64,000 nucleotides of DNA, taken from assembly GCF_003334765.1 (NCBI RefSeq), contig NZ_QOWT01000004.1; one strand, given 5' to 3'. Both the position numbers and the translations under genes were made by a program. Of this stretch, positions 44,883 to 45,267 are shown one piece after another; position 1 is the first letter of the stretch; each line of letters begins with the position of its first letter. Origin of the DNA: Escherichia coli. GTDB lineage: Bacteria > Pseudomonadota > Gammaproteobacteria > Enterobacterales > Enterobacteriaceae. Below the pieces are notes generated by a model that saw nothing but the letters and a program-made list of their open reading frames with translations, ran no database searches and had not been told where the DNA came from.

Positions 44883-45267
44883 CTTGTTGTAAGCCGGATC
44901 GGAGGCAACGTCTTCTGGGTGCAAAAAAATCATCCATCCGGCTGGTCAGCAACTGTAGTTGTTAATGTGACAGAGCCATTGCCCATGATAGTGTCCATTA
45001 AAAGGATGGACACTATTTCCCCGGAACCTGAACTCACCGCACAGGCGTTCTACATAAAACGCTTACGCTTCATTGTTGACTCGAACTCGACTTCAGATAA
45101 ATCACGCTTTACCCTTGATGGAGCCTGTACATAGATTTGTGTAATTGCCTGATTTTGATATGTTCAATTCAACATCAAATGAAGGTTAAATTATGGACGA
45201 CAAACAATTGCAGGCTCAGGCTGCGTTCAGCAAAGCATCGCAACCGGCGATAGATGCTTCATTAAAT

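Follow-up and report, generated by a model that had tools for sequence, protein, structure and literature searches.

Left-end hairpins are one of the known ways in which insertion sequences (IS) limit their own expression. In IS10, IS50 and IS200 such hairpins reportedly sequester the ribosome-binding site of the transposase gene by fold-back. Control by proteins is found at the same end: the InsA proteins of IS2 and IS1 are IS-encoded helix-turn-helix proteins which bind the left end and thereby exert autorepression. Palindromic sequences between convergent genes are also represented by the REP and BIME repeats, and some IS3-family elements insert in REP loops.

The palindrome considered here is located between the convergent genes dadX and cvrA of Escherichia coli and is, in our reading, a remnant of an IS66-family left end. 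As in the IS10, IS50 and IS200 hairpins, the inverted repeat of IS66 elements is found near the left end with its 3′ arm next to or over the start region of the transposase gene, its loop length is variable and some compensatory changes occur. In contrast to these hairpins, the IS66 hairpin is predicted from sequence, its arms are invariant across distant relatives, two IS66 types have direct repeats instead, and in alphaproteobacterial IS66 copies the Shine-Dalgarno sequence lies outside the stem. IS2 InsA resembles the TnpA protein of IS66 in having a helix-turn-helix, and the IS66 motif is likewise left-end specific and located between terminal repeat and gene start. Compared with the InsA systems of IS2 and IS1, however, the IS66 site is putative, the spacing of its half-sites ranges from 18 to 26 bp and no promoter consensus surrounds it. 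With REP and BIME repeats the dadX-cvrA palindrome has in common its intergenic position between convergent genes and, in one strain, an IS3-family element in the loop, but its sequence is AT-rich and unrelated to theirs, it occurs in a single copy, and a REP-like hairpin is instead a feature of the genomes which lack the island described below.

The palindrome in the dadX-cvrA gap

The window, i.e. the whole stretch of DNA analysed, comprises 64,000 nucleotides of an E. coli contig (NZ_QOWT01000004.1) and is K-12-like, the sequence of the dadX-cvrA gap being 100% identical to MG1655. Addition of 1,195,067 converts window coordinates to those of NC_000913.3 (anchored at ymgM), which places the palindrome at 1240055-1240083. 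The RefSeq annotation of this region consists of just one pseudo 'hypothetical protein'. The features, with strands in brackets, are the following:

43812..44882 (+): dadX, context gene
44889..44985 (+): island DNA of 97 nt between dadX and the IS66 relic, with a predicted stable structure
45066 to ~44986 (-): probable solo IS66-family left-end relic of ~81 bp, with terminal repeat GTAAGCG at 45066, spacer and palindrome
44988..45016 (-, the sense strand of the former IS): palindrome, probably the subterminal palindrome of an IS66-family left end
44988-44998 and 45006-45016: palindrome arms ATAGTGTCCAT and ATGGACACTAT, 100% complementary, separated by the 7-nt loop TAAAAGG
45050..45120 (-): 3′ fragment of a leucine-rich repeat (LRR) gene, last ~24 codons, stop at 45052-45050, protein end ...KRKRFM*
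45121..45222 (+): IS256-family left-end relic, 93% identical to the end of an intact IS256-family element
45193..45396 (+): ymgM, first 10 codons equal to the IS256-family transposase start, remainder antisense into cvrA
45268..47004 (-): cvrA, context gene, convergent with dadX

An initial annotation of this DNA had described a perfect palindrome with 11-bp arms about 105 bp past dadX, and the sequence confirms it: the palindrome reads ATAGTGTCCAT-N7-ATGGACACTAT at 44988-45016, and its first arm begins 105 nt past the dadX stop (44882). With the cvrA stop at 45268 the gap measures 385 bp. It had been called long for a convergent pair, and it is indeed abnormal. With the arm length set to 11 nt or more and the loop to 3-10 nt, the real window contains 6 distinct perfect inverted repeats, compared to a mean of 0.1 per shuffled window. 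As RNA, the palindrome is predicted to fold with -18.4 kcal/mol on the plus strand (z -4.35) and with -16.0 kcal/mol on the minus strand (z -2.7). Just 4 of the 11 stem pairs are G-C, and the stem is bordered by the tails TTCCCC and CATGGG. A scan for promoters around the palindrome yielded no promoter-like site, and the covariance models of Rfam 15 gave only chance-level matches of snoRNA type (E > 0.9), none of which lies over the palindrome. E. coli genomes contain the palindrome at a median of 1 place, any extra places being IS66 left ends; this is not the pattern of a dispersed host repeat of the REP or BIME type with many intergenic copies per genome.

A probable solo relic of an IS66-family left end

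IS66-family left ends contain a conserved subterminal palindrome, and we consider the K-12 palindrome to be a copy of it kept within a solo relic. The identification rests on about 81 bp, and we assign it a probability of roughly 85%. The assignment follows from an alignment that is in register with the IS terminus and from profile matches. Homology begins exactly at the terminus GTAAGCG and ends right after the palindrome, at the point where tnpA would begin, and over this length the relic aligns in register with intact IS66 left ends. In an ungapped local alignment extended from the palindrome to the terminus, GTAAGCG of K-12 (45066, minus strand) comes to lie opposite the ISCro1 terminus GTAACCG. 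The window reads GTAAGCGTTTTATGTAGAACGCCTGTGC from 45066 on the minus strand and thus shows the terminal repeat of IS66 left ends, 5′-GTAA(G/C)CG with a conserved ACCGTCT box some 17-24 nt further in. When nine IS66 left ends were combined into an nhmmer profile, it matched 45066-44985 with an E-value of 1.2e-11 (profile positions 1-83 of 96) and nothing else within the window. A profile restricted to the terminal repeat, i.e. the 48 nt before the palindrome, still ranks the relic first (E 0.058), and a position matrix built from 11 IS66 termini gives 45066 on the minus strand the top score of 128,000 positions (19.2 bits).

The closest relative is an IS of Pantoea dispersa, with 68 of 80 positions identical (85%), or 37 of 48 (77%) outside the palindrome. 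A plasmid search returned the first 83 nt of the IS66-family element on Raoultella plasmid pRJ46C, 79.5% identical to window 45067-44987 (E 3e-10), and by blastn nt 1-82 of this element match the relic with 79.3% (E 1.6e-13). The Raoultella element is intact: it carries tnpB and tnpC, its target duplication of 8 bp is perfect, and its palindrome arms are perfect and identical to those of K-12. Of 33 positions in the palindrome region, loop and arms together, 32 agree with IS66 left ends; plasmid pAPEC2908 carries a 32-nt near-copy, again including the loop, 2 nt upstream of the start of an IS66-family tnpA. Like ISCro1 and the IS66 group of Pantoea, Raoultella and Erwinia, the relic combines the terminal start GTAAGCG, a spacer of equal length and identical arms. 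The ...ACCGTCTG-type box of IS66 elements is found at equal distance in the K-12 version AACGCCTG, and the T-rich loop is shared with intact elements, in which the palindrome occupies nt ~50-80 directly before the tnpA start. Judged by sequence, the source IS was most like the Pantoea/Raoultella/Erwinia group.

Compared with intact IS66 elements, K-12 keeps only the first ~81 bp. Searches of the window by blastn and tblastx with two full elements detected no tnpA, tnpB, tnpC or other IS66 pieces elsewhere, which makes the sequence a relic and not an element. A right terminal repeat was not found, and an 8-bp target duplication is missing, the flanks AACTTGTT and GCTTCATT being different. The K-12 loop of 7 nt is shorter than the 8-9 nt in most intact copies and as long as that of the pAPEC2908 copy (7 nt). 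A further difference from intact elements is that a host-island gene has its 3′ end inside the relic. K-12 adds a degraded example of an IS66 left end.

Two further places in the window were considered as IS66 sequences and rejected. The heptamer GTAAGCC at 44889 suggested a miniature two-ended IS66 derivative at 44889-45066, but the terminus matrix gives this site -23 bits, there is no target duplication, and as an IS66 right end 44889 aligns to two right ends within the shuffle range. A second relic at 22817/23198, with a one-mismatch arm and a terminus-like 28-mer, lies inside a coding region and has chance-level E-values.

Transcript ends and other explanations for the palindrome in K-12

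In the Term-seq data of Adams et al. 2021 (PMC7815308, supplementary tables), plus-strand 3′ ends are listed at NC_000913.3 1240019/1240020, corresponding to window 44952/44953. This dadAX 3′ end is located at the foot of a predicted branched structure (44889-44951), 35 nt upstream of the palindrome, so that K-12 ends its dadAX mRNA in acquired sequence and not at an ancestral hairpin. At or just after the palindrome this one data set lists no 3′ end on either strand. The same supplement (PMC7815308) reports a Rho-dependent plus-strand termination site at window 45446, downstream of ymgM, with a 43-fold effect of bicyclomycin.

These data bear on the best-surviving alternative, namely that the palindrome serves the host as a terminator or as a stabiliser of RNA 3′ ends. 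It would then act on dadAX mRNA on the plus strand, or on the minus strand on cvrA mRNA or on that of the former LRR gene. Its position between convergent genes, the stable hairpin predicted on both strands and its distance of 34 nt from the LRR stop in LRR-bearing strains would suit such a role, and K-12 has lost the GC-rich hairpin which is present in the island-free gap. Nevertheless, we regard this explanation as improbable. The attributes of an intrinsic terminator, a GC-rich stem, a U-tract and an RNA 3′ end just downstream, are not found: on neither strand is the stem followed by a T-run, and the terminator scan was negative, in agreement with the initial annotation, which had already judged the palindrome unlike a canonical intrinsic terminator. 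The dadAX transcript ends upstream, at 44952/3, in two conditions, with no end at the palindrome. Moreover, the sequence is inherited from an IS in which the palindrome precedes a gene and does not follow one.

Even less probable is that the palindrome forms part of a small-RNA gene in the gap or serves a host transcription factor as operator; the initial annotation had raised a protein-binding site or a structured small RNA. The perfect dyad symmetry with a 7-bp spacer and the long gap invite this idea, and the plus strand is transcribed further to the right, where ymgM is expressed and the Rho-dependent site at 45446 is located. Against it stands the distribution: apart from IS66 copies there is one copy per E. 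coli genome, and about 22% of the genomes are without the whole segment. The palindrome has no Rfam match, no promoter-like site and no mapped RNA end, and its flank is homologous to an IS terminus. The structured small RNA is thus not borne out, nor is a protein-binding site of the host locus; for the parent IS a binding site may apply, with an IS-encoded protein as the partner. The annotation had further held that a lack of other copies would speak against its proposals; other copies do exist, and they are IS66-family left ends. What remains of it is the palindrome, its dissimilarity to a terminator and the odd gap, and not the host function. A chance origin in AT-rich intergenic DNA, conceivable for a single site of moderate length, is already refuted by the homology, with the expectation of 0.1 per window, the 32/33 match to IS66 left ends and the significant flank homology all opposed to it.

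Taken as an IS66 relic, the palindrome in K-12 is most likely an inert fossil, without partner genes and not the dadAX 3′ end, and its perfect symmetry would be inherited from the parent IS. A residual role, e.g. in stabilising the cvrA transcript or a read-through transcript, may exist. The origin of the palindrome cautions against reading it as a host regulatory site.

The motif in IS66 elements and other genomes

Besides ISCro1, five other enterobacterial left-end types carry arms identical to those of K-12 in front of tnpA, and related motifs are found in five more. A retrieval by TnpA similarity, which avoids a bias toward the motif, gave the left-end types A to I. They differ as follows:

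Types A and D: A·C mismatch in the palindrome
Type B: perfect palindrome, with G-C at the pair mismatched in A and D
Type E: perfect palindrome, with A-T at the pair mismatched in A and D
Type C: shorter arms
Type H: swap from U-A to A-U, 16-nt loop
Type I: diverged left arm
Types F and G: direct repeats of (A/G)TGGAC(A/G)C, in type G with unpaired GA

A scan for exact arms in one genome per species, which by its design is biased toward exact arms, gave 97 sites. About 82 of them belong to Pantoea stewartii and are situated at contig ends, which indicates a high-copy IS. In this genome (strain CCUG 26359, loci L137-L218), about 80 copies of an IS with a perfect palindrome lie 47 nt from contig ends, and this IS is a main cause of the assembly breaks. 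Further sites were found in Pantoea, Erwinia, Mixta and Enterobacter.

Exact arms also occur in five alphaproteobacterial genomes, where they belong to true IS66 elements with TnpB 63% and TnpC 48% identical to ISCro1. Their arms agree with the enterobacterial ones over 12 bp, but loops and flanks are unrelated, and TnpA is short, with 115 aa. In alphaproteobacterial metagenome-assembled genomes (L219, L221, L223, L231) conservation extends to the last four loop bases (GATA or GATG) and to the AT with which the right arm continues. These six bases, GATAAT or GATGAT, resemble a -10 hexamer; the corresponding position is occupied by TTTAAT, TCTAAT or TATAAT in the enterobacterial types.

Yersinia pestis (L224 5182-5212) and Y. 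similis (L228 1032-1062) carry a solo palindrome with 12-bp arms, AATAGTGTCCAT, and a 7-nt loop that differs between the two species. Since IS66 genes, a terminus or other IS66 sequence were not detectable around these copies, the motif can exist without a recognisable IS context. The Yersinia palindrome lies downstream of a 247-aa ORF without NCBIfam match, and another GGACACTA motif is found about 120 nt away.

At IS66 right ends the motif is absent. Two resemblances elsewhere in the elements were discarded: TATGTCC..GGACATA near the right end of the Raoultella IS is coding sequence and not conserved in ISCro1, and ATGGACAC at the tnpC start of ISCro1 reads ATGGAGAC in the Raoultella IS. A description of a hairpin or palindrome at IS66 left ends was not found in a search of the literature outside the subscription journals, in which key IS66 papers appear.

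Possible role in intact IS66 elements

In intact elements the palindrome lies about 50 nt inside the terminal repeat, at the left end only and directly upstream of the tnpA start. From this left-end specificity and the position directly before tnpA we infer a role in tnpA control, and the palindrome of a live IS66 most likely acts in cis to regulate the expression of tnpA. Two ways of action are conceivable, and symmetric co-variation fits both alike.

Slightly favoured, while still short of an even chance, is a pair of TGGACAC sites for an IS-encoded helix-turn-helix protein, which would probably be TnpA acting as autorepressor. The arms are identical in very distant IS66 elements with differing loops and flanks, the motif is arranged as direct repeats in types F and G, and it was not found at right ends. 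Residues 98-141 of IS66 TnpA match the 'IS2 repressor TnpA' model in its helix-turn-helix region. On the other hand, the variable spacing between the half-sites argues against a rigid dimeric operator.

An RNA hairpin which occludes the tnpA translation start, as suggested by structure prediction, appears somewhat less plausible. The arms are kept with loops of 7, 8, 9 and 16 nt, the predicted stems are stable, and compensatory changes are seen, with 3 pairs showing double changes and 92% of cells paired. In the enterobacterial types the 3′ arm contains a GGA, 8-10 nt ahead of the start codon. A purely structural hairpin is contradicted by the invariant arms and the direct-repeat variants, as well as by the Shine-Dalgarno sequence GAGG outside the stem in alphaproteobacterial copies. 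The remaining, smallest share falls to another function or to none. The IS66 left ends revealed no promoter or terminator consensus. A terminator for an antisense RNA, suggested by a T-run on the strand opposite tnpA in some types, was not supported, as this consensus is lacking and the T-run is missing in other types.

More tentatively, and with rather low probability, the palindrome might mark a deeply conserved and undescribed cis-regulatory site of IS66: a pair of TGGACAC motifs, mostly in inverted orientation, which Alpha- and Gammaproteobacteria share unchanged between the left terminal repeat and tnpA. Were it a TnpA site, the accessory protein TnpA would gain a testable function as autorepressor or left-end organiser, and the solo copies in E. 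coli and Yersinia could titrate IS66 proteins or respond to them in trans. For IS66 biology, the strongly conserved left-end motif is usable for studying tnpA control and TnpA function.

The gap as a mosaic island

Across 5,426 complete E. coli genomes, the 385-bp gap divides into segments with differing distributions. Window 44883-45123 adjoins dadX in about 78% of the genomes and in many of them runs on into the LRR gene on the minus strand. Approximately 1186 genomes (~22%), e.g. that of E2348/69, match K-12 only to 44888. In these island-free genomes dadX and cvrA are separated by a gap of about 50 bp with a 13-bp GC-rich hairpin (-25.8 kcal/mol, z -6.7), which is probably the ancestral structure between the two genes. 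The hairpin of E2348/69 (L011 3240-3281) is REP-like. As the match to island-free genomes ends at 44888, the sequence from 44889 to about 45259 is what remains of an island which took the place of the short ancestral spacer. The island which fills the long gap is degraded and consists of three remnants: the IS66 relic, the end of the LRR gene and an IS256-family end. For K-12 this explains an odd, long convergent gap as a decayed island, which is annotation rather than new biology.

The LRR gene is intact in other E. coli strains and encodes 479 aa (L002 6168-7604, minus strand, in strain 1604D011). Its LRR region resembles the LRR domains of the type III effectors SlrP and SspH2; the protein has no match to the remaining parts of SlrP and SspH2. 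The stop and the last 5 codons sit inside the IS66 terminal repeat, which indicates that the IS once abutted or truncated the LRR gene. At its other side, the gene fragment of K-12 is cut off at the outer end of the IS256-family relic. The transposase ATG of the intact IS256-family element corresponds to window 45193, the ATG of ymgM. YmgM is among the detected small proteins (PMC6001520, Table 1). We propose that this expressed 'small protein' is probably a by-product of the promoter and ribosome-binding site of the IS relic, its origin being explained by a transposase start fused to antisense cvrA sequence.

The following course of events may have led to the present arrangement. An island with the LRR gene would have been placed between dadX and cvrA, and an IS66-family element at the 3′ end of the LRR gene would have supplied its last five codons and stop. 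Later deletions would have taken tnpA, tnpB, tnpC and the IS right end, and in the K-12 lineage a further deletion beside the IS256-family relic would have removed most of the LRR gene. The K-12 arrangement arose by more than simple deletion, as the LRR-bearing strain 1604D011 carries part of the IS256-family end (L002 8040-8130, matching window 45170-45220) in inverted orientation relative to K-12. In O157:H7 (L003 6338-7551) an IS3-family element replaces most of the LRR gene, and the surroundings are rearranged further, with fragments of ycgR and dhaK.

The segment 44889-44985 between dadX and the IS66 relic has no similarity to IS66 right ends, and a plasmid-collection search with it returned only full-length copies of the locus. 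Its left boundary begins with GTAAGCC, the IS66-type terminal heptamer with one change, but the next 20 nt do not score as an IS66 terminus.

Variation among E. coli strains

The exact 56-nt K-12 version is present in 1826 of the approximately 4236 E. coli genomes with the locus. Perfect symmetry is strain-specific: the left arm has a T to C change at 44994 in O157 strains and in strain 1604D011. Sampled variants are mostly found in the loop (AAAAGA, AAAATG, ACAATG). Variable sites in nine sampled genomes, too few to show selection on the arms, amount to 3 of 7 in the loop, 1 of 22 in the arms and 1 of 27 in the flank.

In strain GPEC548 (L132 ~1580-3000) an IS3-family element is inserted exactly in the palindrome loop, with a 3-bp duplication of AAA. 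This insertion recalls the IS3-family elements that target the loops of palindromic units.
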